A DNA stretch of 25,037 bases from a virus (taxonomy: Duplodnaviria; Heunggongvirae; Uroviricota; Caudoviricetes), in IMG/VR virus record IMGVR_UViG_3300045988_138129, positions 1 through 25,037 of that record. One strand, 5' to 3'. The notes under the pieces are model-generated. The model had not been told where the DNA came from. It searched no databases and saw only the letters and a list, made by a program, of their open reading frames with translations. Positions 771-18,227 of this stretch are shown piece after piece. How positions within the stretch are numbered: position 1 is the first letter of the stretch; each line of letters begins with the position of its first letter. The translations under genes were made by a program, and so were the position numbers.

Positions 771-1625
771 ATGGCAAAAAAAGTCTCAAAATTCTTTCGT
801 ATCGGCGTTGAGGGTGACACCTGTGACGGGCGTGTCATCAGTGCGCAGGATATTCAGGAAATGGCCGAAACCTTTGACCCGCGTGTCTACGGTTGCCGCA
901 TTAACCTGGAACATCTGCGCGGCATCCTGCCTGACGGTATTTTTAAACGTTATGGCGATGTGGCCGAACTGAAGGCCGAAAAGATTGATGACGATTCGGC
1001 GCTGAAAGGCAAATGGGCGCTGTTTGCGAAAATCACCCCGACCGATGACCTTATCGCGATGAACAAGGCCGCGCAGAAGGTCTACACCTCAATGGAAATT
1101 CAGCCGAACTTTGCCAACACCGGCAAATGTTATCTGGTGGGTCTGGCCGTCACCGATGACCCGGCAAGCCTCGGCACGGAATACCTGGAATTCTGCCGCA
1201 CGGCAAAACACAACCCCCTGAACCGCTTCAAATTAAGCCCTGAAAACCTGATTTCAGTGGCAACGCCTGTTGAGCTGGAATTTGAAGACCTGCCTGAAAC
1301 CGTGTTCACCGCCCTGACCGAAAAGGTGAAATCCATTTTTGGCCGCAAACAGGCCAGCGATGACGCCCGTCTGAATGACGTGCATGAAGCGGTGACCGCT
1401 GTTGCTGAACATGTGCAGGAAAAGCTGAGCGCCACTGAGCAGCGACTCGCTGAGATGGAAACCGCCTTTTCCGCACTTAAGCAGGAGGTGACTGACAGGG
1501 CGGATGAAACCAGCCAGGCATTCAGCCGCCTGAAAAACAGTCTCGACCACACCGAAAGTCTGACCCAGCAGCGCCGCAGCAAGGCCACCGGCGGTGGCGG
1601 TGACGCCCTGATGACGAACTGCTGA
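771..1625 (+). CDS. O: Capsid scaffolding protein gpO
   Basis: MAKKVSKFFRIGVEGDTCDGRVISAQDIQEMAETFDPRVYGCRINLEHL... matches P2 gpO. AGGA RBS upstream of the ATG at 771. The ORF-track start at 705 is an upstream extension. Confidence 0.93.
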   Translation: MAKKVSKFFRIGVEGDTCDGRVISAQDIQEMAETFDPRVYGCRINLEHLRGILPDGIFKRYGDVAELKAEKIDDDSALKGKWALFAKITPTDDLIAMNKAAQKVYTSMEIQPNFANTGKCYLVGLAVTDDPASLGTEYLEFCRTAKHNPLNRFKLSPENLISVATPVELEFEDLPETVFTALTEKVKSIFGRKQASDDARLNDVHEAVTAVAEHVQEKLSATEQRLAEMETAFSALKQEVTDRADETSQAFSRLKNSLDHTESLTQQRRSKATGGGGDALMTNC

Positions 1626-1683
1626 CCGGCGTCAGCCAGTCCGGGAAAACCTTCACGATTAACCCTTAATTTCAGGAAAAACT

Positions 1684-2757
1684 ATGCGCCAGGAAACCCG
1701 CTTTAAATTTAATGCCTACCTGTCCCGTGTTGCCGAACTGAACGGCATCGACGCCGGTGATGTGTCGAAAAAATTCACCGTTGAACCGTCGGTCACCCAG
1801 ACCCTGATGAACACCATGCAGGAGTCCTCTGACTTTCTGACCCGCATCAACATTGTGCCGGTCAGCGAAATGAAAGGGGAAAAAATTGGTATTGGTGTCA
1901 CCGGCTCCATCGCCAGCACCACAGACACCGCCGGTGGCACCGAGCGTCAGCCGAAGGACTTCTCGAAGCTGGCGTCAAACAAGTACGAATGCGACCAGAT
2001 TAACTTCGATTTTTATATCCGCTACAAAACGCTTGACCTGTGGGCGCGTTATCAGGATTTCCAGCTCCGTGTCCGTAACGCCATTATCAAACGCCAGTCC
2101 CTTGATTTAATCATGGCCGGTTTTAACGGCGTGAGGCGTGCCGAAACCTCTGACCGCAGCAGTAACCAGATGCTGCAGGATGTGGCGGTCGGCTGGCTGC
2201 AGAAATACCGCAATGAAGCCCCGGCGCGCGTGATGAGCAAGGTTACTGACGAGGAAGGTCACACGACCTCTGAGGTCATCCGCGTGGGTAAGGGCGGTGA
2301 TTATGCCAGCCTCGATGCACTGGTGATGGATGCGACCAACAACCTGATTGAGCCGTGGTATCAGGAAGACCCTGACCTTGTGGTGATTGTGGGGCGTCAG
2401 CTACTGGCGGACAAGTATTTCCCCATCGTCAACAAGGAGCAGGACAACAGCGAGATGCTGGCCGCTGACGTCATCATCAGCCAGAAACGCATCGGTAACC
2501 TGCCGGCGGTACGCGTCCCGTACTTCCCGGCGGATGCGATGCTCATCACGAAGCTGGAAAACCTGTCCATCTACTACATGGATGACAGCCATCGCCGCGT
2601 GATTGTGGAAAACCCGAAACTCGACCGCGTGGAGAACTACGAGTCAATGAACATTGATTACGTGGTGGAAGACTACGCCGCCGGTTGTCTGGTGGAAAAA
2701 ATCAAGGTCGGTGACTTCTCCACACCGGCTAAAGCGACCGCAGAGCCGGGAGCGTAA
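1684..2757 (+). CDS. N: Major capsid protein gpN
   Basis: 357 aa, MRQETRFKFNAYLSRVAELNGIDAGDVSKKF...; P2 gpN-type major capsid protein in the conserved position after O. Confidence 0.95.
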   Translation: MRQETRFKFNAYLSRVAELNGIDAGDVSKKFTVEPSVTQTLMNTMQESSDFLTRINIVPVSEMKGEKIGIGVTGSIASTTDTAGGTERQPKDFSKLASNKYECDQINFDFYIRYKTLDLWARYQDFQLRVRNAIIKRQSLDLIMAGFNGVRRAETSDRSSNQMLQDVAVGWLQKYRNEAPARVMSKVTDEEGHTTSEVIRVGKGGDYASLDALVMDATNNLIEPWYQEDPDLVVIVGRQLLADKYFPIVNKEQDNSEMLAADVIISQKRIGNLPAVRVPYFPADAMLITKLENLSIYYMDDSHRRVIVENPKLDRVENYESMNIDYVVEDYAAGCLVEKIKVGDFSTPAKATAEPGA

Positions 2758-2760
2758 CCG

Positions 2761-3510
2761 ATGACGAGTCCCGCACAGCGCCACATGATGCGGGTCTCGG
2801 CAGCGATGACCGCGCAGCGGGAAGCCGCCCCGCTGCGACATGCAACTGTCTATGAGCAGATGCTGGTTAAGCTCGCCGCAGACCAGCGCACACTGAAAGC
2901 GATTTATTCAAAAGAGCTGAAGGCCGCGAAAAAACGCGAACTGCTGCCGTTCTGGTTGCCGTGGGTGAACGGCGTGCTGGAGCAGGGCAAAGGTGCACAG
3001 GATGACATTCTGATGACGGTCATGCTGTGGCGTCTGGATACCGGCGATATTGCCGGTGCGCTGGAGATTGCCCGTTATGCCCTGAAGTACGGTCTGACCA
3101 TGCCGGGTAAACACCGCCGCACCCCGCCGTACATGTTCACCGAGGAGGTCGCGCTTGCGGCCATGCGTGCCCACGCTGCCGGTGAGTCTGTGGATACCCG
3201 CCTGCTGACGGAGACCCTTGAACTGACTGCCGCTGCTGACATGCCTGATGAAGTGCGCGCAAAGCTGCACAAAATCACCGGTCTGTTTCTGCGTGACGGT
3301 GGTGATGCCGCCGGTGCGCTGGCGCACCTGCAACGTGCGACACAGCTCGACTGTCAGGCAGGCGTCAAAAAAGAGATTGAACGACTGGAGCGGGAGCTGA
3401 AACCGAAGCCGGAGCCGCAGCCGCAGCCAAAAGCGGCCACCCGTACCCCGCGTAAGACCCGGAGCGTGACACCGGCAAAACGTGGACGCCCGAAAAAGAA
3501 AGCCAGTTAA
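2761..3510 (+). CDS. M: Terminase endonuclease (small) subunit gpM
   Basis: 249 aa, MTSPAQRHMMRVSAAMTAQREAAPLRHATVYEQMLVKLAADQRTLKAIY..., basic PKPEPQPQPK...RGRPKKK tail. Position and sequence match P2 gpM. Confidence 0.93.
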   Translation: MTSPAQRHMMRVSAAMTAQREAAPLRHATVYEQMLVKLAADQRTLKAIYSKELKAAKKRELLPFWLPWVNGVLEQGKGAQDDILMTVMLWRLDTGDIAGALEIARYALKYGLTMPGKHRRTPPYMFTEEVALAAMRAHAAGESVDTRLLTETLELTAAADMPDEVRAKLHKITGLFLRDGGDAAGALAHLQRATQLDCQAGVKKEIERLERELKPKPEPQPQPKAATRTPRKTRSVTPAKRGRPKKKAS

Positions 3511-7079: not shown

Positions 7080-8153
7080 TTACTTTCCATTTTTTAATGA
7101 ATTGATTAACGATGCTATTTGCTCAATGCCATCAAATGTAGATGGTATCTTATCATCGGATAGCATGATGTTTGAAAATACTACGTCTTCGAATTTTGAA
7201 AGCGCTTCCGGATTGTTTTTCCTTATCTCTGAGGAATAGTCGCTATAACTCTGAATGAACTGACAAAGGCTCTTTCTGAGTTCTATTTGCATAATCTGAG
7301 TTCGTAACGATATATGATTTAGCAGTACAACTCTAAAGTAATACATGAAAATCAATGTAACTGATGCAAAAGGTAGTGCTGACATAAAATATGTGGCAGC
7401 ATTTGTCGTTTCGAGAGCTGGTAATTTATGCATTCCATAGTATATCAGCGGGGAGGGAATGATTATAGCCAAGATGATAAGAGTTATTCTTGATAGCATG
7501 ATTTCACTTTCTTTCTTTTTGCCAAGTGAATTAAAGCCTTCAAACAATCCAACAAAATTAAATGCGACCTCATACCCTTTTAATGACTCTTTGATTGACT
7601 CTATTTTGGCATGTTGCTCCTTTAAGAAGGAGTCGCACTTTTCGAAAAATTGACGCCCTTCGTTTAAACTATCAATGTATTTTTTATATGTGTCAACATT
7701 GCTGGAGCTTAAAACTTCTTTAACCATTGCTAATGGCAGTTCTCTAAGAGAAAAGTCTATCTGTGCTCTGCTCCGCTCATCGAATTCATTATAGTTATAC
7801 AGAGCAAAATCCTTGATGGTTCTTAGTGGTGAAAAGTGAGACTCTATTTCCGGAGAGAGAATGCTTGGTTCAATGATAAATCTAAAAAAGCAAGTGAATA
7901 TAAGGTTGATGCTGTTGTTATCTTCTCCCTTTTCTCTTAAGAAACTTTTAAAGGTGTCGCCAATCATAGCAATGTTGTACTGGGATTTTTTGTCCCAATC
8001 TTCAGGGTTTTCGGAAATGAAGTTTATTGCTTGAGCAATTATTTTGTTTCTGCTTGATTCAAAGTTTGTGCCGGGAGTCAGCGTGTTCAAAAAGACCAGA
8101 TAATCTTTGAACAATTCTTTCATTGTTTCTGACGAGAAAAAGTAAGTACTCAT
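7080..8153 (-). CDS. Hypothetical two-TM membrane protein in the S-V accessory position; candidate abortive-infection or defense protein
   Basis: Uninterrupted minus-strand ORF, AT-rich by eye. Soluble N-terminal ~240 aa, two hydrophobic helices (LSRITLIILAIIIPSPLIYYG; AATYFMSALPFASVTLIFMYYFRVVLL), C-terminal ~85 aa tail. ATG at 8153 (MSTYFF...) gives 358 aa and avoids overlapping V; alternative starts are GTG at 8249 (389 aa, overlaps V) and ATG at 8123. Confidence 0.75.
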   Translation of the reverse strand: MSTYFFSSETMKELFKDYLVFLNTLTPGTNFESSRNKIIAQAINFISENPEDWDKKSQYNIAMIGDTFKSFLREKGEDNNSINLIFTCFFRFIIEPSILSPEIESHFSPLRTIKDFALYNYNEFDERSRAQIDFSLRELPLAMVKEVLSSSNVDTYKKYIDSLNEGRQFFEKCDSFLKEQHAKIESIKESLKGYEVAFNFVGLFEGFNSLGKKKESEIMLSRITLIILAIIIPSPLIYYGMHKLPALETTNAATYFMSALPFASVTLIFMYYFRVVLLNHISLRTQIMQIELRKSLCQFIQSYSDYSSEIRKNNPEALSKFEDVVFSNIMLSDDKIPSTFDGIEQIASLINSLKNGK

Positions 8154-8239
8154 AATGGATTTTGTTGTCCCTTGTTGTTCTGTGCACCAGAAATCGTGGT
8201 GTGATTTACTTCGAGATTGTACAGAATCATTATTATCGA
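8154..8239. promoter_or_regulatory. Divergent intergenic region, expected site of the V late promoter and of the cargo-gene promoter
   Basis: 86-bp gap between the cargo-gene start (8153, minus) and the V start (8240, plus), containing TTGTTGT...TTGTTCTGT elements. Called from position only. Confidence 0.3.
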
Positions 8240-8869
8240 ATGAATGCACAATACAATGAAATTCTTCGCTTTATACGCAATATGATTCGCACTGGCATTA
8301 TCGTCGAAACCGACCTTAATGCCGGTCGCTGCCGTGTGCAGACCGGCGGCATGTGCACCGACTGGCTTCAGTGGCTGACCCATCGCGCCGGTCGTTCGCG
8401 CACATGGTGGGCACCTTCCGTGGGGGAACAGGTGCTGATTCTGGCCGTGGGCGGTGAACTCGACACGGCGTTCGTTCTGCCGGGGATTTATTCCGGCGAT
8501 AACCCCGCGCCGTCGGCGTCGGCGGATGCCCTGCATATCCGTTTCCCTGACGGGGCGGTGATTGAGTATGAACCTGAAACCAGTGCACTCACGGTAAGCG
8601 GAATTAAAACGGCCAGCGTGACGGCTTCTGATTCTGTTACTGCCACGGTGCCGGTGGTCATGGTGAAAGCATCAACCCGCGTCACCCTGGACACACCGGA
8701 GGTGGTCTGCACCAACAAGCTGATTACCGGCACGCTGGAAGTGCAGAAGGGCGGGACGATGCGCGGCAACATTGAACACACCGGCGGTGAACTTTCATCA
8801 AACGGGAAGGTACTGCATACCCATAAACACCCCGGCGACAGCGGCGGCACAACCGGGAGTCCTCTATGA
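8240..8869 (+). CDS. V: Baseplate spike / assembly protein gpV
   Basis: MNAQYNEILRFIRNMIRTGIIVETDLNAGRCRVQTGGMCTDWLQWLTHRAGRSRTWWAPSVGEQ... matches P2 gpV. The ORF-track start at 8162 is an upstream extension. Confidence 0.93.
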   Translation: MNAQYNEILRFIRNMIRTGIIVETDLNAGRCRVQTGGMCTDWLQWLTHRAGRSRTWWAPSVGEQVLILAVGGELDTAFVLPGIYSGDNPAPSASADALHIRFPDGAVIEYEPETSALTVSGIKTASVTASDSVTATVPVVMVKASTRVTLDTPEVVCTNKLITGTLEVQKGGTMRGNIEHTGGELSSNGKVLHTHKHPGDSGGTTGSPL

Positions 8870-10659: not shown

Positions 10660-12750
10660 ATGAGCACAAAATTCAAAACCGTTATCACCACTGCCGGTGC
10701 AGCAAAGCTGGCAGCGGCAACCGCACCGGGAGGGCGGAAGGTCAACATTACCACGATGGCCGTCGGGGATGGCGGTGGTAAATTGCCTGTCCCGGATGCC
10801 GGACAGACCGGGCTTATCCATGAAGTCTGGCGACATGCGCTGAACAAAATCAGCCAGGACAAACGAAACAGTAATTATATTATCGCAGAGCTGGTTATTC
10901 CGCCGGAGGTGGGCGGTTTCTGGATGCGTGAACTTGGCCTGTACGATGATGCGGGAACGCTAATTGCCGTGGCGAACATGGCCGAAAGTTATAAGCCAGC
11001 CCTTGCCGAAGGCTCAGGGCGTTCGCAGACCTGCCGCATGGTCATCATCGTCAGCAGTGTGGCCTCAGTGGAGCTGACCATTGACACCACAACGGTGATG
11101 GCAACGCAGGATTACGTTGATGACAAAATTGCAGAACATGAACAGTCACGACGTCACCCTGACGCCTCGCTGACCGCAAAAGGTTTTACTCAGTTAAGCA
11201 GTGCGACCAACAGCACGTCTGAAACACTGGCTGCAACTCCGAAAGCGGTTAAGGCCGCATATGACCTTGCTAACGGGAAATATACCGCACAGGACGCTAC
11301 CACCGCGCGAAAAGGCCTTGTTCAGCTCAGTAGTGCGACTAACAGCACGTCTGAAACGCTCGCCGCAACGCCGAAAGCGGTAAAGGCAGCATATGACCTT
11401 GCTAACGGGAAATACACTGCACAGGATGCCACAACAGCGCGAAAAGGCCTTGTTCAGCTCAGTAGCGCCACCAACAGCGATTCTGAAACGCTTGCGGCAA
11501 CGCCAAAGGCGGTTAAGACAGCATATGACCTTGCTAACGGGAAATACACTGCACAGGATGCCACCACGGCGCGAAAAGGTCTTGTCCAGCTCAGTAGCGC
11601 CACCAACAGTGATTCTGAAACGCAGGCTGCAACGCCAAAGGCGGTGAAGTCTGCCTATGACAATGCTGAAAAACGTCTTCAGAAAGATCAGAACGGTGCG
11701 GATATTCCGGGAAAGGATACCTTCACGAAAAATATCGGTGCCTGTCGTGCTTATAGCGGCGCTTTGAGCACTGAAGCCGGAAACTGGACAACCGCTCAGT
11801 TTATTGAATGGCTGGATTCCCGTGGTGCATTTAATCATCCGTACTGGATGTGCAAAGGCTCCTGGTCATATGCAAATAACAAAATCATTACGGATACTGG
11901 CTGTGGCAATATTCATCTTGCTGGCGCTGTTATTGAGGTAATGGGCATAAAGTCTGCAATGACTATTCGTATTACCACACCAACAACATCAAGCGGTGGG
12001 GGCACTACAAGCGCGCAATTTACTTATATTAACCACGGGGACAACTATGCTCCTGGCTGGCGGCGTGACTGGAACCGTTACGGCGATTCTATGTCTGGAA
12101 CTATTAATCAGGATAGTGGAAGCCAGAATGCCTATATGTCTACGGCCTTATGTTCCGGCACCAGAGGCGGCAAAAAATATCTCAGAAAGTTTCGTGGTGG
12201 AGAAGGAGACACTATCTGGCATGAAACAGTACAGGGCGGGGTAATTCGCTGGGCGACAGGTAATACTGATGCTCAGGAAGAATTATCACTCAGCTCTGCT
12301 TATGGTCTTCGTTCAAGAGGTGAAATTACATCGCTCAGTGCTAATGGTCTGCGCATTGCTTATGGCAATTATGGATTCTTTATCAGGAATGATGGCGGCA
12401 GCACATATTTAATGCTGACGGCCTCTGGCGATAAATTTGGAACATGGAACGGTTTAAGACCGCTGACTATCAATAACGCCAATGGCGGAGTGTCAATGGG
12501 GCATGGCCTGAGTGTTACTGGACGTGTTAACCCATCAGATTACGGAAATTTTGATTCCCGCTATGTGAAAGATGTTCGCCTGGGTACGCGTGTTGTTCAG
12601 ACCATGCAAAAAGGCGTGATGTATGAGAAATCAGGCCATGTAATTACAGGGCTTGGCATTGTCGGCGAAGTTGATGGCGATGATCCGGCAGTATTCAGAC
12701 CAATACAAAAATACATTAATGGCACATGGTATAACGTCGCACAGGTGTAA
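10660..12750 (+). CDS. H: Tail fiber protein gpH, with an internal tandem-repeat shaft segment
   Basis: 696 aa; N-terminus MSTKFKTVITTAGAAKLAAATAPGGRKVNITTMAVGDGGG... is the conserved P2-type fiber anchor. The C-terminal third is AT-richer and likely the host-range-determining region. Confidence 0.92.
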   Translation: MSTKFKTVITTAGAAKLAAATAPGGRKVNITTMAVGDGGGKLPVPDAGQTGLIHEVWRHALNKISQDKRNSNYIIAELVIPPEVGGFWMRELGLYDDAGTLIAVANMAESYKPALAEGSGRSQTCRMVIIVSSVASVELTIDTTTVMATQDYVDDKIAEHEQSRRHPDASLTAKGFTQLSSATNSTSETLAATPKAVKAAYDLANGKYTAQDATTARKGLVQLSSATNSTSETLAATPKAVKAAYDLANGKYTAQDATTARKGLVQLSSATNSDSETLAATPKAVKTAYDLANGKYTAQDATTARKGLVQLSSATNSDSETQAATPKAVKSAYDNAEKRLQKDQNGADIPGKDTFTKNIGACRAYSGALSTEAGNWTTAQFIEWLDSRGAFNHPYWMCKGSWSYANNKIITDTGCGNIHLAGAVIEVMGIKSAMTIRITTPTTSSGGGTTSAQFTYINHGDNYAPGWRRDWNRYGDSMSGTINQDSGSQNAYMSTALCSGTRGGKKYLRKFRGGEGDTIWHETVQGGVIRWATGNTDAQEELSLSSAYGLRSRGEITSLSANGLRIAYGNYGFFIRNDGGSTYLMLTASGDKFGTWNGLRPLTINNANGGVSMGHGLSVTGRVNPSDYGNFDSRYVKDVRLGTRVVQTMQKGVMYEKSGHVITGLGIVGEVDGDDPAVFRPIQKYINGTWYNVAQV
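11185..11658 (+). repeat. In-frame tandem repeat inside H, ~3.6 copies of a 132-bp (44-aa) unit
   Basis: Unit boundaries at 11185, 11317, 11449 and 11581. Encoded unit (F/L)(T/V)QLSSATNS(T/D)SETLAATPKAVKAAYDLANGKYTAQDATTARKG. Minus-strand ORF 11194..11838 and short plus ORFs here are repeat-generated shadows. Confidence 0.9.
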
Positions 12751-12753
12751 TTT

Positions 12754-13281
12754 ATGCAGCATTTAAAAAATATTACTGCGGGTAATCCCAAAACTGTTGC
12801 CCAATATCAACTGACAAAAAATTTTGATGTTATCTGGTTATGGTCTGAAGACGGAAAAAACTGGTATGAGGAAGTAAGTAATTTTCAGGAAGACACGATA
12901 AAGATTGTTTACGACGAGAATAATATAATTGTCGGCATCACCAGAGATGCTTCAACGCTTAACCCTGAAGGTTTTAGCGTTGTCGAGGTTCCTGATATTA
13001 CCGCCAACCGACGTGCTGATGACTCAGGTAAATGGATGTTTAAGGATGGTGCCGTGATTAAGCGGATTTATACGGCAGACGAACAGCAGCAACTGGCAGA
13101 ATCACAAAAGGCAACTTTACTTTCCGAAGCTGAATCCGTGATTTTGCCGCTGGAGCGCGCTGTCAGGCTGAATATGGCAACAGATGAGGAGCGCAGCCGA
13201 CTGGAAGCATGGGAACGCTACAGCGTTCTGGTCAGTCGTGTGGATCCTGCAAATCCTGAATGGCCGGAAATGCCGCAATAA
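12754..13281 (+). CDS. G: Tail fiber assembly chaperone gpG
   Basis: 175 aa, [41 protein letters not shown]...; Tfa-type fiber assembly protein immediately after H. Confidence 0.9.
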
Positions 13282-13326
13282 GTTGTATGAGCTGACATAC
13301 CTATAGCACAGAGTAAAGTCTAATCT

Positions 13327-13355
13327 GACAGTCCGCTCTGTGCCAAGAGCAGACG
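13327..13355. repeat. Near-palindromic site A (GACAGTCCGCT-ctgtgccaag-AGCAGAC), left boundary of the transporter cassette
   Basis: 7-bp arms GTCCGCT / AGCAGAC with one central mismatch, 10-nt core. Related to sites B (17003) and C (18008). Lies in the 315-bp gap between G and the BetT-like gene. Confidence 0.6.
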
Positions 13356-13596
13356 CTGGTAATTCGTGCCTAATATACTTCACTTAACTTATATCCCAGC
13401 TTTGATACAGATCATACAAATTAAATGCCCCAGTAATTGGCAGGCTGAGTAACTTAAAACTCCTTAGAATATAGGATGATTTGTATCGGCACTCATTCCA
13501 CCATGCATTCCGATTAATCCCGCATAGCCAGTTGAACTTTGCTACTCTGTGAGAGGTAGTACCTTCTATCCAGTGCGGATTTAATTAATGGAATAA

Positions 13597-15600
13597 ATGA
13601 TTATGAGTGAAAATGATACAACCCCAAAGAAGTCTACAAGCCAGGTTAACAAAGCGGTATTCTTTACATCTGCTTTGCTAATTTTCCTTCTTGTCGCCTT
13701 TGCCGCCGTATTCCCGGATGTCGCCGACAAAAATTTTAAACTACTTCAGCAACAAATCTTCACGAATGCCAGCTGGTTCTACATACTTGCTGTGGCCCTG
13801 ATTTTACTGAGCGTCACGTTCCTTGGACTCTCACGTTACGGTGATATAAAGCTGGGCCCAGACCATGCGCAGCCTGATTTCAGCTACCACTCCTGGTTCG
13901 CGATGCTTTTTTCGGCAGGGATGGGGATCGGCCTGATGTTCTTTGGCGTTGCCGAACCTGTGATGCATTATCTTTCGCCACCTGTCGGCACTCCAGAGAC
14001 CGTTGCGGCAGCGAAGGAAGCCATGCGCCTGACGTTCTTCCACTGGGGTCTGCACGCATGGGCAATTTATGCCATCGTGGCGCTGATTCTGGCCTTTTTC
14101 AGTTACCGTCACGGTCTGCCTTTAACGCTGCGTTCTGCGCTCTATCCCATTATCGGCGATCGCATTTACGGGCCTATAGGCCACGCGGTTGATATCTTCG
14201 CCGTGATAGGCACTGTCTTTGGCGTTGCAACATCGCTGGGTTACGGTGTATTGCAGGTGAATGCCGGTTTGAACCATCTTTTCGGCGTGCCCATCAATGA
14301 AACGGTACAGGTCATTTTGATCGTGGTCATCACGGGGTTAGCGACGATTTCGGTGGTGTCCGGCCTGGACAAGGGAATACGCATCCTGTCTGAGCTTAAT
14401 CTGGGCCTGGCGGTGTTGCTCCTGGCGCTGGTCTTGTGCCTGGGTCCCACTGTGCTTCTGCTGAAGTCATTTGTGGAAAATACGGGTGGTTATCTGTCGG
14501 AACTGGTGAGTAAAACGTTCAACCTTTACGCGTATGAACCCAAGTCGAGCAACTGGCTGGGGGGCTGGACATTATTATACTGGGGATGGTGGCTTTCATG
14601 GTCGCCGTTTGTAGGTATGTTCATTGCACGCGTTTCCCGCGGCAGGACAATTCGTGAGTTCGTGACTGGCGTGTTGTTTGTTCCCGCCGGCTTTACGCTC
14701 ATGTGGATGACGGTGTTTGGAAACAGCGCCATCTATCTCATCATGAACCAGGGCGCCACTGACCTCGCCAATACCGTTCAGCAGGATGTTGCGCTTGCCC
14801 TGTTTAATTTCCTGGAGCATTTCCCGTTCTCTTCCGTGCTGTCATTCATTGCAATGGCGATGGTCATCGTCTTCTTTGTAACGTCTGCTGATTCGGGGGC
14901 AATGGTTGTGGATACTCTGGCATCAGGTGGGGTGGCAAACACGCCCGTCTGGCAGCGAATTTTCTGGGCATTGCTCATGGGCGTTGTTGCTATTGCCCTG
15001 CTGATCGCAGGGGGGCTGAGTGCGTTGCAAACCGTAACGATAGCGAGTGCATTGCCCTTCTCAGTTATCTTATTAATATCCATATACGGACTGTTAAAAG
15101 CCCTGCGTCGGGATTTGACCAAGCGTGAAAGCCTTAGCATGGCGACTATTGCTCCTACGGCTGCACGTAACCCAATTCCTTGGCAGAGAAGGTTACGCAA
15201 TATCGCGTATTTGCCGAAGCGCTCTCTTGTGAAACGTTTTATGGACGACATTATCCAACCCGCCATGACGCTGGTTCAGGAGGAACTTAACAAGCAGGGA
15301 ACGATAAGCCACATCAGTGACGCCGCCGAGGATCGTATTCGCCTTGAAGTCGATTTGGGCAACGAGCTGAATTATATATATGAAGTGAGGCTTCGCGGGT
15401 ATAACTCACCGACCTTCGCGCTCGCTGCGCTGGATAATGATGAGCAGCAGAGTGAACAACATCGATATTATCGCGCTGAAGTCTATCTCAAAGAGGGCGG
15501 CCAAAATTATGATGTAATGGGCTGGAATCAGGAACAGCTGATTAATGACATACTGGACCAGTACGAAAAACACCTGCACTTCCTGCATCTGGTTCGTTAA
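13597..15600 (+). CDS. BCCT-family transporter, BetT-like (choline/betaine-type), full length with long C-terminal cytoplasmic domain
   Basis: 667 aa, ~12 hydrophobic helices. BCCT signature GWTLLYWGWWLSWSPFVGMFIARVSRGRTIREF. Conserved blocks resembling BetT at both ends (YGDIKLGP...AMLFSAGMGIGLMFFGVAEPV; QEQLINDILDQYEKHLHFLHL). Alternative start ATG at 13603. Confidence 0.85.
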   Translation: MIMSENDTTPKKSTSQVNKAVFFTSALLIFLLVAFAAVFPDVADKNFKLLQQQIFTNASWFYILAVALILLSVTFLGLSRYGDIKLGPDHAQPDFSYHSWFAMLFSAGMGIGLMFFGVAEPVMHYLSPPVGTPETVAAAKEAMRLTFFHWGLHAWAIYAIVALILAFFSYRHGLPLTLRSALYPIIGDRIYGPIGHAVDIFAVIGTVFGVATSLGYGVLQVNAGLNHLFGVPINETVQVILIVVITGLATISVVSGLDKGIRILSELNLGLAVLLLALVLCLGPTVLLLKSFVENTGGYLSELVSKTFNLYAYEPKSSNWLGGWTLLYWGWWLSWSPFVGMFIARVSRGRTIREFVTGVLFVPAGFTLMWMTVFGNSAIYLIMNQGATDLANTVQQDVALALFNFLEHFPFSSVLSFIAMAMVIVFFVTSADSGAMVVDTLASGGVANTPVWQRIFWALLMGVVAIALLIAGGLSALQTVTIASALPFSVILLISIYGLLKALRRDLTKRESLSMATIAPTAARNPIPWQRRLRNIAYLPKRSLVKRFMDDIIQPAMTLVQEELNKQGTISHISDAAEDRIRLEVDLGNELNYIYEVRLRGYNSPTFALAALDNDEQQSEQHRYYRAEVYLKEGGQNYDVMGWNQEQLINDILDQYEKHLHFLHLVR

Positions 15601-15607
15601 CAGCAAC

Positions 15608-15636
15608 ATGCCGCCACAGAGGCGGCATTTATTTAT
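15608..15636 (+). terminator. Rho-independent terminator after the BetT-like gene
   Basis: ATGCCGCC-acag-GGCGGCAT hairpin followed by TTATTTAT, 8 nt after the stop at 15600. Confidence 0.75.
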
Positions 15637-15663
15637 CCCGGCTGCAATATGAGGGAATGCAGA

Positions 15664-16941
15664 ATGATTTCACGCTGGAAATGGATGCTGAAGCAGACAT
15701 TTAAAAAACTATGGTTCAGGGCAACGTTATTCGCAATTGTCGCAATAATAACGGCCCTTTTATCAATTCTTTTTAAATCAATGATACCTGAGTCGGTTTC
15801 CGTGAAGGTTGGTGCGGAAGCAGTCGATAACATTCTGAACATACTGGCATCGAGTATGCTGGCAGTGACCACATTTTCGCTGAGCATCATGGTCACAGCC
15901 TACGGTTCAGCCACTACTAATGTGACTCCCAGAGCTACTCGTTTAGTTGTTGAAGACGTCACCACACAAAATGTACTGGCCACCTTCATCGGTTCTTTTC
16001 TCTTCAGTCTGGTAGGGATTATTGCCCTCAATATGGGAGCTTATGGAGAAAGGGGGAGAGTCATTTTATTCATTGTAACACTGGTTGTCATTGCCTTAAT
16101 CCTCATCACATTGCTTCGCTGGATACAGCATTTGACCTCTCTGGGGAGGGTTGGTGAGACAACGGCAAAAGTAGAACAGGCGGCCATCGAAACATTTATT
16201 GCGAGAGCAAGAAATCCCTGTCTCGGCGGATATCCATGGCTTGAGAACAATGAACAGCCGAAAGGAACGGTTGCAGTTTATCCGAAAAAGATTGGCTATG
16301 TTGAATATGTTGATATGGTGAAACTCAGCAAGCTGCTGACCAATGATCCCCGTCATGTATACCTCGTGGCGCAGCCGGGCAGTTTCATACATCCGTCCAC
16401 GCCAGTTTTGTACCTGAGTCAGGGCCAGGAGTCATCAATCAGCACCGATTTACTTGAGACGATTATTGTCTCGGATGTACGTTCATTTGCTCAGGACCCC
16501 CGATTTTGTCTTAGCGTCATGGCCGAAATAGCCTGCCGAGCCCTTTCCCCCGCAGTGAACGATCCTGGAACCGCCATTGATGTCATTGGCAGAGGTGTAC
16601 GTATACTTTCCGCTTACGCGCAGAATAAATCTGATGAAATAGAAGTGAAATATCCTTCTGTACATGTTGCACCACTTCAGAATAACGATCTACTTGAAGA
16701 CTTTTTCTCACCTGTTGCGCGCGATGGTGCCAGTATGAGGGAAATTCAGATAAGGGTCCTTAAAGGACTGTCGATGCTGAGTAAGGGTTGGCCTGGAATT
16801 TTTGCTGAAGCCGCACAAACCCTAGCATTTGAAACATTAGAGCATGCTACTCGTGCTGACCATATAGATTCTGACAGATATCTAATAAAATCAATTTATT
16901 ATAATTTATTTAGTGGCGAAGATTCTAATAAAAAACCATAG
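15664..16941 (+). CDS. Membrane protein with four N-terminal TM helices and a large cytoplasmic domain; DUF2254-like (family assignment from memory, uncertain)
   Basis: GAGGG RBS before the ATG at 15664 (MISRWKWMLKQ...); the ORF-track start at 15649 is less likely. Four hydrophobic helices in the first ~160 aa. Conserved-looking block SFAQDPRFCLSVMAEIACRALSPAVNDPGTAIDVIGRG. Confidence 0.75.
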   Translation: MISRWKWMLKQTFKKLWFRATLFAIVAIITALLSILFKSMIPESVSVKVGAEAVDNILNILASSMLAVTTFSLSIMVTAYGSATTNVTPRATRLVVEDVTTQNVLATFIGSFLFSLVGIIALNMGAYGERGRVILFIVTLVVIALILITLLRWIQHLTSLGRVGETTAKVEQAAIETFIARARNPCLGGYPWLENNEQPKGTVAVYPKKIGYVEYVDMVKLSKLLTNDPRHVYLVAQPGSFIHPSTPVLYLSQGQESSISTDLLETIIVSDVRSFAQDPRFCLSVMAEIACRALSPAVNDPGTAIDVIGRGVRILSAYAQNKSDEIEVKYPSVHVAPLQNNDLLEDFFSPVARDGASMREIQIRVLKGLSMLSKGWPGIFAEAAQTLAFETLEHATRADHIDSDRYLIKSIYYNLFSGEDSNKKP

Positions 16942-17002
16942 TTGCGGAGCAAGCGATACGGTTGTTGGCAAGTCAAGGGCAAAGCATTCGCGTGAGAGTG
17001 GG

Positions 17003-17027
17003 CGTCTGCTTTGTGCCAACAGCGGAC
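17003..17027. repeat. Near-palindromic site B (GTCTGCT-ttgtgccaac-AGCGGAC), between the convergent DUF2254-like and HNH genes
   Basis: Core 8/10 identical to site A in direct orientation. Its arms are the reciprocal variants of site A's arms (A: GTCCGCT/AGCAGAC; B: GTCTGCT/AGCGGAC). Confidence 0.6.
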
Positions 17028-17081
17028 ATTATAGATGGTATATGTAGAAAGTGAACATGCGTAGATTGTATGATTTAGCCG

Positions 17082-17891
17082 TCACTTAATTATTGGATAA
17101 CTCACACAAGTATGACCGTTGCTTATCGCATACATTTGGTTTCCCTTAAGATTTACAAATGGAAATGTCGTATACTCATAATTTATAGAGGTCATATTAA
17201 ATGTAAGGAATTTATCTTCAAGTTCTAATTTTGTAGAGTGGGCAGGGTATGTTCCTTCATTTCTCATTGTGATAATAAAACCGATAGGAAAAAAATGTAA
17301 AGCACAAATAAATGCCACATGTCCTTCGTTCATAAATGCTACACTTTGAGCGGATATGTGCATTCTGTGTGGGTAAAACCAGTAGTAAATATCATGAGTT
17401 TCCTCAAAACTTGAATTTTTACCCAAAACATAATCCTTTAAAGGTGTATAGAAGGGGCTATCTACGGGTTCTTTTTTACAATCTTCAACTGAAGTTGCTG
17501 ATAGCACGTGCCCAATCATAGCCTTAGTGAAAGATATGCTATCAAAAGGTATTCTAATGAATGGATATACATTCATACCATTCATATATCGACTTAACTG
17601 TTCTTTAAAGGACTTTGTTACATTTTCAATTGCAACATCGAGCCCACCTAATACCTTATTGTTACAGTGGCTGCAAATGGTTCTGAAATAAGAGCCATTT
17701 TTAGCATTTAATGGTTTAACTGGTTCCTGAATACCAAAAAATTCGCTAACTGTTTTCTGCAAAACAGGGCCTAAGGTTATGGCGCACTTTGGAGGAACAT
17801 GATCTTTTGTGAGCAAGCCATATTTCCCACAAATATTGCAATAACCTTCAGTAATGCCATTGTGCTTCCATCGTTCACTAATTTTCGTCAT
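17082..17891 (-). CDS. HNH endonuclease-domain protein (N-terminal HNH motif, C-terminal domain of unknown function)
   Basis: 269 aa, AT-rich, GAGGGA RBS before the ATG at 17891. Motif C-N-I-C-G-x9-D-H-V-P-P-K ... N-x12-C-S-H-C-N-N-K fits the CxxC...(D/H)H..P...N...CxxC(N)xK HNH zinc-finger nuclease pattern. Confidence 0.78.
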   Translation of the reverse strand: MTKISERWKHNGITEGYCNICGKYGLLTKDHVPPKCAITLGPVLQKTVSEFFGIQEPVKPLNAKNGSYFRTICSHCNNKVLGGLDVAIENVTKSFKEQLSRYMNGMNVYPFIRIPFDSISFTKAMIGHVLSATSVEDCKKEPVDSPFYTPLKDYVLGKNSSFEETHDIYYWFYPHRMHISAQSVAFMNEGHVAFICALHFFPIGFIITMRNEGTYPAHSTKLELEDKFLTFNMTSINYEYTTFPFVNLKGNQMYAISNGHTCVSYPIIK

Positions 17892-18007
17892 TTTTATTCC
17901 CTCAGTAGCATAAGCTATCTATACGTTTTTTAATCCTATCAAAGATACAACTTAACGTCAGGAAAATGATAGTGTTTATCTAAGTAATACAATTAACTTC
18001 AACGCGT

Positions 18008-18039
18008 GACAGTCTGCTTTTCGCTCAAAGCAGACTGTC
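18008..18039. repeat. Perfect palindrome site C (GACAGTCTGCTTT-tcgctc-AAAGCAGACTGTC) upstream of the HNH gene
   Basis: 13-bp perfect inverted arms around a 6-nt centre. The arms share the GACAGTC(T/C)GCT...AGCAGAC sequence with sites A and B. No T-run follows, so it is not a classic terminator; it could be a recombination site or operator. Confidence 0.65.
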
Positions 18040-18103
18040 AGATTTGATAGCGTTTTGGCTATGTAAATTGTCAGTCGGAAAATGAGTGAGTACAAACTAG
18101 GAC

Positions 18104-18128
18104 AGGCGGGCGAATTGCCCGCCTTTTC
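18104..18128 (+). terminator. Rho-independent terminator (plus orientation) just upstream of the FI promoter region
   Basis: AGGCGGGC-gaatt-GCCCGCCT hairpin followed by TTTTCT. Confidence 0.7.
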
Positions 18129-18227
18129 TGTATCTGTTGTTTCATCCACTGACCAGACAGATCAAATAGCGTCTCATGCTCTGTACAACAGAAAATAGTT
18201 GCACCCATTAACCACGGAGTTAAACGG
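18129..18227 (+). promoter_or_regulatory. Expected late promoter region for the FI-FII-E-T-U-D operon
   Basis: Called from position: the ~100 bp upstream of FI after the terminator, containing a TGTTGTTTCATCC...CCAGACAGA element. I could not confirm an exact match to the late-promoter dyad I recall from the P2 literature. Confidence 0.3.

Follow-up and report, generated by a model that had tools for sequence, protein, structure and literature searches.

The window, which means here the whole 25,037-nt stretch of viral DNA that was analysed, shows 100% identity to E. coli S10 (NZ_CP010229.1), a RefSeq assembly at the 'complete genome' level. It contains a tail-fibre gene of the gpH family of a P2-like prophage (Table 1), whose DNA identity to Peduovirus H genes is 88-95%, and the RefSeq CDS with the same coordinates in E. 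coli S10 is WP_000104687.1, a 'tail fiber protein'. At the N-terminus, the PF12571 match on residues 1-151 covers profile positions 1-150 of 150. RefSeq annotates the identical locus, in the gene order J-I-H-G, as baseplate assembly protein, tail protein I, tail fiber protein and tail fiber assembly protein. The PF12571 N-terminus, this gene order with the Caudo_TAP gene directly downstream, and the P2-like late operon place the product among the fibres of the P2 gpH type; by homology, it would form a trimeric fibre on the virion.

The orphan ORFs nearby had no match in PADLOC and Pfam scans. A gene overlapping the array on the opposite strand (ORF 11194-11838, minus, 214 aa) was considered and rejected, because the differences between the repeat units cluster at third positions of the plus frame; this third-position excess fits selection on the H frame only.

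Table 1. Features of the fibre locus. Repeat units are counted from the conserved Gly (nt 11182, 11314, 11446 and 11578; aa 175, 219, 263 and 307).
Feature	Coordinates	Strand	Evidence or description
gpH-family tail-fibre gene, P2-like prophage, 696 aa	10660..12750	+	PF12571, PF03406 x4, PF21446
N-terminal baseplate-attachment domain, aa 1-151	10660..11112	+	PF12571 Phage_tail_fib, E 1.1e-58
Repeat unit 1, aa 175-218	11182..11313	+	GFTQLSS...TTARK; leading turn DASLTAK from about nt 11158
Repeat unit 2, aa 219-262	11314..11445	+	
Repeat unit 3, aa 263-306	11446..11577	+	
Repeat unit 4, terminal	11578..11709	+	Core conserved to about nt 11667, helix then Mu-S-type AYDNAEKRLQKDQNGADIP
Distal fibre, Mu S/S'-like	11710..12750	+	PDB sequence matches 8ju3 (E 5e-93), 5yvq (E 5e-60)
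Gp34_trimer domain in distal fibre, aa 540-604	12277-12471	+	PF21446, E 2.2e-23
gpG-like tail-fibre assembly chaperone	12754..13281	+	PF02413 Caudo_TAP, E 9.4e-35; RefSeq 'tail fiber assembly protein'

The repeat array

Tandem Repeats Finder reported a single array in the whole window, at 11206-11661 (period 132, 3.5 copies, 88% matches, 0% indels, score 653). In the repeat search, similarity reached 11178-11667, as three 226-nt copies at a spacing of 132 nt, or about 3.7 DNA units. The 132-bp array is in frame with the fibre ORF and encodes four protein modules of 44 aa each, exactly spaced. As proteins, units 1-3 show 2-4 residue differences, and unit 4 keeps the first ~30 residues (GLVQLSSATNSDSETQAATPKAVKSAYD) before running on into the distal fibre.

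A preliminary description had placed a 132-bp in-frame tandem repeat at 11185-11658, in the shaft of a gpH-type tail fibre. The repeat is borne out and lies inside the longer tract given above, and the 44-aa consensus proposed for it was correct. The gpH assignment agrees with PF12571, with the place between gene I and the Caudo_TAP chaperone gene G, and with the RefSeq annotation; the repeats sit between the PF12571 baseplate anchor and the distal, Mu-S-like receptor-binding part, that is, in the proximal shaft. The same description called the units near-identical, which is true of the protein only, as the DNA units are 81-89% identical.

We found that PF03406 (Phage_fiber_2) matched four stretches of the fibre ORF (E 3.9e-81) at 266.8 bits, against a gathering cut-off of 22, and the repeat is therefore far beyond chance. 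The top stretch aligned residues 170-210 with profile positions 1-41 of 42. Judged by its score above the cut-off and by its tandem units of about 40 residues in a tail-fibre ORF, the 132-bp unit is the Pfam Phage_fiber_2 repeat, already catalogued. This family occurs in trimeric fibres of many phages (myo-, sipho- and podophages), and PF03406 ('Pf2') of lambda Stf, StfR and the collagen-like proteins of EHEC prophages shows no categorical difference from the units here. Repeats in P2 H were reportedly noted in the literature of the 1990s. The repeat is real but ordinary and already known; because the family is catalogued, the fibre gene well studied and the exact protein present in RefSeq, its value as a discovery is small.

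At E<=1e-3, 2505 clusters (50% identity) match PF03406. Among the best 150 of these 2505 representatives, arrays reach up to 12 units and periods include 44, 56, 53, 39, 51, 58 and 78; these varied periods point to a constant core combined with a variable linker. Non-redundant four-unit arrays with a period of 44 numbered only 5 among the representatives, too few for a useful whole-array alignment.

Predicted fold of the module

[quoted passage not shown] One unit, modelled in AF2 with an alignment of 101 diverse units, reached a pLDDT of 83.3; the model places two strands (12-14, 24-26) before a helix (28-41). A single-sequence AF2 model of residues 151-367, the four-repeat segment, was discarded (pLDDT 44.8, all helical hairpins). 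The predicted order in the 44-residue module is a turn, the conserved Gly, a beta-strand (LVQLSS), a loop (ATNSTSET), a short strand, Thr-Pro and an alpha-helix (PKAVKAAYDLANGK). Positions G9, S19, A25, A26, T27, V31, K32, D36 and A38 were nearly invariant across the 101 diverse units, G9 and T27 each being conserved in at least 90% of them, and T27 is followed by a consensus Pro.

The repeats of T4 gp34 and gp12 form a central bundle of three helices; in them a Gly opens the strand, and the helix is capped by Ser/Thr-Pro (PMC5537660). The PF03406 module has the same motif, with a conserved Gly where the strand starts and Ser/Thr-Pro capping the predicted helix at its N-terminal end; the logic of turn, Gly-strand, loop and Ser/Thr-Pro helix is common to both, and the secondary-structure order in the AF2 model agrees. 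As predicted for the units here, the gp34 repeats (744-776, 780-812 and 823-868; PDB 5nxh) follow one another as modules of a trimeric fibre shaft, but they differ from the units here in a variable loop, in an additional short helix and in copies that are not near-identical. By analogy with gp34 and gp12, the three helices of the trimer may pack on the fibre axis, and each module would lengthen the shaft by a constant step of roughly 3 nm.

Profile comparison of PF03406 units with the gp34/gp12 repeats by hhalign gave weak similarity, with probabilities of 30% (E 5.5e-4, 32 columns) and 21% (E 1e-3, 16 columns) and P values of about 1e-3. PF03406 had no hit when T4 gp34 was scanned with Pfam, a fold search gave no match, and profile searches of the PDB, with 9 units and with 101 units, matched only Mu gpS. 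The PDB chains that contain the module by sequence are Mu gpS entries only, in which the module may not be modelled. In the cryo-EM study of Mu, only the N-terminus of gp49 was built (PMC11915804).

Divergence and copy number of the units

DNA identity was 84.8% between units 1 and 2, 89.4% between units 2 and 3, and 81.1% between units 1 and 3, and third codon positions accounted for 16/20, 11/14 and 18/25 of the respective differences (72-80%). Pairwise among units 1-3, dS was 0.41-0.92 and dN 0.04-0.08, which gives dN/dS of about 0.05-0.09; the longest identical runs in register were 26-46 bp. Nucleotide identity between units 3 and 4 was 86% in the first 87 nt and 65% across 132. In hypermutable contingency repeats of slipped-strand phase variation, short and perfectly identical DNA units switch expression or reading frame when they are gained or lost; the units here, being 132 bp long, in frame and divergent to this degree, are not of that kind. 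A binding function, and not a structural one alone, could lie behind conservation at a dN/dS below 0.1.

The nearest relatives of the units in DNA were found in other phages. Unit 1 was closest to unit 1 of phage P37 (97.7%, against 84.8% to unit 2 of its own gene), unit 2 to the second unit of an E. coli gene that has 6 (95.5%; its own neighbour reaches 89.4%) and unit 3 to unit 4 of 5 in the homologue L008 (97.7%), and unit 2 of the 3-unit phage fiAA91-ss was in turn closest to unit 3 here (96.2%). All four units were 95.5-97.7% identical to some unit in other phages and at most 89.4% identical to any unit of their own gene. Seven complete genomes taken as a spread sample (H32-H38) were colinear with the region over the whole 937-940 bp in one alignment piece, at 93.5-96.8% identity, and their arrays are therefore equal in length to the one here; among the list entries sampled, at least seven complete genomes besides E. 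coli S10 thus carry an equal-length array. Because positional counterparts are closer than neighbours and dS is high, the array appears old and stably inherited, and not a fresh product of slippage or of assembly.

Comparison of repeat number across related prophages gave 2-6 units, with length differences always in exact 44-aa steps. Among the closest homologues, 107 of 120 were full enough to count, and 37 had 3 units, 57 had 4, 8 had 5 and 5 had 6; homologues labelled 'partial' were numerous, and most of them end 90-330 aa past the last repeat, not within the array. Among named phages, canonical P2 and Wphi have 2 units, fiAA91-ss and P37 have 3, and NC_070905 and 12474III have 4; the complete E. 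coli genomes examined have 2, 2, 3 and 4. The unit-2 type is missing in fiAA91-ss and the unit-3 type in P37, which argues for independent deletions. In CFS3246, a complete genome, units 2 and 3 are 100% identical; units 2-4 of L010 are 100% and 98.5% identical, and Citrobacter L011 has a duplicated block of two units (units 1/3 97.7%, units 2/4 100%). Of the four arrays whose units are near-identical, three (L007, L010 and L011) are from draft assemblies, in which copy number is least to be trusted. The polymorphism in 44-aa steps and the 100% identical adjacent units together indicate that gain and loss by recombination between units does occur. One distal fibre type was found with 2, 3, 4, 5 and 6 units, and copy number is therefore not tied to the receptor-binding module. 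This natural series of 2-6 copies is a ready set for testing shaft length against adsorption.

Shaft modules and alternative readings

We consider it highly probable that the PF03406 units are shaft modules whose number changes by recombination, in an array that is old and conserved and whose last unit serves as a junction. The four modules would build the proximal shaft of a trimeric tail fibre of the P2 gpH type, and their number would set the distance from the PF12571 anchor to the Mu-S-like receptor-binding end. Over evolutionary time, unequal homologous recombination between the 132-bp units may have changed copy number, giving the 2-6 modules seen in Peduovirus H, and the four-module array here would have been inherited vertically for long. 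Purifying selection would hold the module protein nearly constant while synonymous sites drift, and this drift may also make recombination between units rarer at present. The last module would double as the joining point for distal fibres of different types.

P2 gpH (NC_001895, 669 aa) has the N-terminal anchor and the gene position (J-I-H-G) in common with the gene here, and the first units of the two genes share 94.7% DNA identity; however, P2 gpH has 2 units in place of 4, and past the last ATPKAVK core it continues into a different distal fibre (TVMDETNKKAPLN...), whereas the gene here continues into a Mu-S-like one. The distal domains of the Mu tail fibre gpS/gp49 (PDB 5yvq, 9ki1 and 8ju3) are homologous to those of the fibre here. 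Unlike the gene here, Mu gpS has another N-terminal anchor and a single unit, residues 111-154; its match to the terminal unit here takes in the continuation DNA..RL.KD.NGADIP, and unit 4 aligns to Mu gpS residues 111-161. In Peduovirus H genes, three distal continuations follow one core (...AVKSAYDNAEKRLQKDQNGADIP, ...AVKTVMDETNKKAPLN and ...AVKAANDNANGRVPS), and the ATPKAVK core offers a natural place to splice when chimeric fibres of P2 or tailocins are engineered.

These observations could also mean that the repeat is mainly a recombination linker for swapping distal receptor-binding segments among unrelated phages, with the tandem copies as a by-product. The one core before three unrelated continuations, the resemblance of the terminal unit and distal part to Mu S/S', and the presence of the family in lambda Stf, StfR and EHEC collagen-like fibres are all in its favour. 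Yet it leaves the retention of internal units and their strong protein constraint unexplained, and it is compatible with the structural explanation without replacing it; as the main role of the repeat we hold it possible but unlikely.

The strong constraint was also considered as a sign of binding. Modules might act as binding sites beyond spacing, either docking a folded-back fibre on the sheath or baseplate or binding a glycan of the host surface, with copy number tuning avidity. The dN/dS of about 0.05-0.09 and the nine nearly invariant positions in the 101 diverse units would fit such a role, and parallels exist: insertions in the analogous repeats of T4 gp34 were proposed as sheath contacts (PMC5537660), and Mu fibres dock along the sheath (PMC11915804). 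On the other hand, the conserved Gly turn, the Thr-Pro helix cap and the small-residue core fit a structural role in an intertwined trimer, and the occurrence of PF03406 in fibres of myo-, sipho- and podophages, which have different tails, argues against one specific docking partner. A binding role is thus rather improbable. Equally doubtful is a further reading, in which the module would be a fibre fold without a solved structure and distant kin of gp34/gp12, the array (2-6 modules in Peduovirus, up to at least 12 among the best 150 representatives) a ruler tuning reach to the thickness of the host's O-antigen or capsule, and the synonymous divergence itself selected. If this were true, synonymous divergence between units would protect a favoured copy number from recombinational loss.

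Differences in copy number among close relatives and identical adjacent units in some of them would also be expected from an active, fast-switching hotspot, resembling a contingency locus, that makes fibre-length variants in the prophage population now. RecA-dependent recombination and mismatch-repair editing should make exchange rare between sequences of such divergence. With units here that are 81-89% identical, that share at most 26-46 bp without interruption, that differ by dS of 0.41-0.92 and that never have a neighbour as closest relative, and with a 4-unit architecture unchanged in many genomes, an active hotspot is very unlikely. The earlier proposal that such repeats let fibre length change by recombination holds for the relatives, with their 2-6 units and identical adjacent copies, but the array here is not fresh slippage, and calling it a possible hotspot of variation, given its divergence, its short identical runs and its closest positional counterparts, went too far.

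It is extremely improbable that the copy number is an assembly artefact, with the true array collapsed or expanded: short reads can mis-assemble tandem repeats and many database homologues are 'partial', but the array is 100% identical in the complete-genome assembly of E. coli S10, H32-H38 carry one of equal length, the 'partial' homologues mostly end well after the last repeat, and units of 81-89% identity whose longest shared in-register run is 46 bp can each be placed by ordinary reads. The risk of assembly collapse attached to this region was overstated in view of the complete E. coli S10 genome and the at least seven other colinear ones. Near-identity at the protein level does not imply unstable DNA, which is relevant when assembly risk is judged from translations.

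The repeat-bearing gene and its family

The window is 100% identical to part of the chromosome of E. coli S10 (NZ_CP010229.1), where the locus is a P2-like prophage adjoining ogrK and yegQ, and the repeat-bearing ORF, annotated "tail fiber protein", lies between tail protein I and tail fiber assembly protein. Tandem Repeats Finder placed the sole array of the 25-kb window at 11206-11661 (period 132, 3.5 copies, 88% matches, no indels, score 653), and ungapped extension of the repeat put the limits of the similarity at 11178-11667. Repeat finding and translation confirmed the 132-bp in-frame repeat of the preliminary description, with its 44-aa consensus and coordinates, inside the tail-fibre gene H. 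Unit 4 has only its first ~30 residues in common with units 1-3 and then passes into distal fibre sequence. Starting with unit 4, the protein is similar to S and S', fibre proteins of Mu (PDB 8ju3, E 5e-93; 5yvq, E 5e-60), and the next gene downstream encodes a Caudo_TAP chaperone (Pfam). Because the array lies between a baseplate anchor (PF12571) and the receptor-binding end, "shaft" is a fair word for its location.

Features of the window and of related H genes
Feature	Nucleotides	Strand	Residues	Evidence
H, 696 aa	10660-12750	+
N-terminal tail-collar fibre domain, PF12571			1-151	Pfam, E 1e-58
Phage_fiber_2, PF03406			four stretches	Pfam, 266.8 bits vs cut-off 22
Unit 1, start	11182	+	175	conserved Gly
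Unit 2, start	11314	+	219	conserved Gly
Unit 3, start	11446	+	263	conserved Gly
Unit 4, start	11578	+	307	conserved Gly
Distal half of H	11710-12750	+
Mu S/S' chimera-like segment			334-484	8ju3 chain, close alignment without large gaps, domain E 5.6e-70
Mu S-like segment			519-623	5yvq
Gp34 trimerisation domain, PF21446			540-604	Pfam
T4 gp34 trimerisation domain match			550-624
BCCT betaine/carnitine/choline transporter, full-length	13597-15600	+		PF02028, E 3e-199
DUF2254 membrane protein	15649-16941	+		PF10011, E 1.6e-92
269-aa ORF	17082-17891	-
ORF at second insertion hotspot	7080-8249	-
Relative L007 (draft), 101-aa overlapping ORF past array	2124-2429
Relative L008, separate 188-aa ORF	2193-2493			Gp34_trimer match
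Relative L017, pseudogene	1289-3303			RefSeq "frameshifted"

The four PF03406 stretches identify the repeat as the catalogued "phage tail fibre repeat". As "Pf2", it has been described in lambda Stf, StfR and EHEC prophage fibres, with little known of its structure and function (PMC3368898), and the family has been placed among repeat families without known structure (PMC8078820). The family and the protein are both known, and the exact protein is in RefSeq. When 1.84 billion cluster representatives were scanned in full with HMMER, 2505 clusters matched (E<=1e-3). Among the best 150 of these, arrays reach 12 units; 44 residues is the commonest period, and next come 56, 53, 39, 51, 58 and 78, a spread that indicates a ~30-residue core that stays constant and a linker that varies in length. 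The consensus of 101 diverse units is xxATTxxxGxVQLSxxxxSTSxTxAATPxAVKxAYDLA, with G9, S19, A25, A26, T27, V31, K32, D36 and A38 at least 90% conserved. In four representatives (P0121, P0122, P0124 and P0127), unit lengths of 56 and 44 alternate (e.g., 56-44-56-56-44-56...) in arrays of 6-12 units, which suggests a higher-order two-unit repeat, comparable with a duplicated two-unit block in the Citrobacter relative L011.

Age and copy number of the units

The units were said to be near-identical, and this holds for the protein, in which units 1-3 differ by only 2-4 amino acids, but not for their DNA, which is 84.8%, 89.4% and 81.1% identical. Third codon positions hold 72-80% of the DNA differences, and Nei-Gojobori estimates are 0.04-0.08 for dN and 0.41-0.92 for dS; in register, identity is unbroken for at most 26 bp between units 1 and 2 and 46 bp between units 2 and 3. 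Low dN with high dS marks the copies as old duplicates, held alike in protein by purifying selection, rather than fresh slippage products. The third-position pattern also speaks against an additional gene read in a different frame, for example the minus-strand ORF 11194-11838.

We compared the 132-bp units of eleven H genes all against all. The closest DNA relative of every window unit was a unit at a corresponding position in another phage (97.7%, 95.5%, 97.7% and 95.5% for units 1-4), whereas units within the window's own gene were at most 89.4% identical, which points to positional identity of the units and inheritance of the four-unit array as such. Instead of the hotspot that had been proposed, the dS values and positional counterparts point to a stable, ancient array in the window.

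Copy number does vary across related phages, always in 44-aa steps and from 2 to 6 units: two in canonical P2 (NC_001895) and Wphi, three each in fiAA91-ss and P37, four each in NC_070905, vB_EcoM-12474III and the window, five and six in draft assemblies, and 2, 2, 3 and 4 in four further complete E. coli genomes. Among the closest 120 database homologues, a sample biased towards the four-unit query, the 107 full enough for counting had 3 (37), 4 (57), 5 (8) or 6 (5) units. The unit-2 type is absent from fiAA91-ss and the unit-3 type from P37, so that their three-unit arrays are independent deletions. Recent duplications are seen in other genes: in CFS3246, a complete genome, unit 3 is 100% identical to unit 2; in the draft L010, identities among units 2-4 are 100% and 98.5%; and the Citrobacter gene contains its two-unit block twice. 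Together with the copy-number steps, they show that unequal recombination between units happens in the H gene family. The suggested change of fibre length by recombination is therefore upheld for the family, but the window bears no mark of a recent event.

Collapse of the repeat during assembly had also been feared, and many database homologues are indeed partial; these mostly stop well downstream of the array, however, not within it. An artefactual copy number is unlikely, given that RefSeq lists the assembly of the identical S10 record as "complete genome", that the units can be told apart in DNA, and that seven further complete genomes from a spread sample each give one unbroken, colinear alignment of 937-940 bp and hence have the same array length.

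Distal continuations and predicted fold

Past the core that they share, Peduovirus H genes continue in at least three unrelated ways: TVMDETNKK... (P2/Wphi type), SAYDNAEKRLQKDQNGADIP (Mu-S type) and AANDNANGRVPS... (third type). The last module thus also serves as the seam at which one distal, receptor-binding part replaces another. Genes with the Mu-S-type ending have 2, 3, 4, 5 or 6 modules, so copy number and receptor-binding type vary independently. The distal half of H, not the repeat, is likely the determinant of receptor specificity. This half is mosaic, made up of segments of Mu fibres (Table). In several relatives, H is split or frameshifted downstream of the array, which could reflect prophage fibre decay or sequencing errors.

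Conserved modules follow one another in a set order along H. Single-sequence AF2 gave a useless model of the whole array (pLDDT 44.8); one unit modeled with the 101-unit alignment reached pLDDT 83.3, with a leading turn, a strand just past the conserved Gly (12-14), a loop, a short strand (24-26), Thr-Pro and a helix (28-41). The predicted order matches that published for T4 gp34 and gp12, in which an invariant Gly after a tight turn starts a β-strand, a loop and a short strand come next, and Ser/Thr-Pro caps a helix; the helices of the trimer pack along its axis as a three-helix bundle, and three such repeats stand in series in the shaft (PMC5537660). We infer that the H modules would likewise be trimeric and serial, each lengthening the proximal shaft by a constant amount, roughly 3 nm by analogy with gp34 dimensions (PMC5537660).

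Other insertions in the prophage

Cargo lies where P2 has Z/fun, with the fibre-assembly gene G on one side and the sheath gene FI on the other (13597-16941, +; flanks 13290-18220). About 2,500 E. coli genomes have any match to the 4.9-kb query, most at 90-95% identity; the sampled 90-95% matches cover the BCCT-DUF2254 pair at ~94%, and only 34 genomes have the whole arrangement. The transporter was not found in isolated-phage records. The two genes appear to be a chromosomal pair taken up by the prophage. The ORF between this cargo and the sheath gene had no significant Pfam or PADLOC match. Phage pro147 matches part of the 4.9-kb query that includes this ORF (94% identity, 25% covered, three pieces), a match that may or may not take in the ORF itself; the pro147 genes concerned are annotated as a putative metal-binding domain-containing protein and a hypothetical protein. 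At the second P2 insertion hotspot, between tail-completion genes and baseplate gene V, the opposite-strand ORF had no Pfam or PADLOC match; counted from a GTG codon it is 389 aa long, and the RefSeq call is a hypothetical protein of 347 aa.
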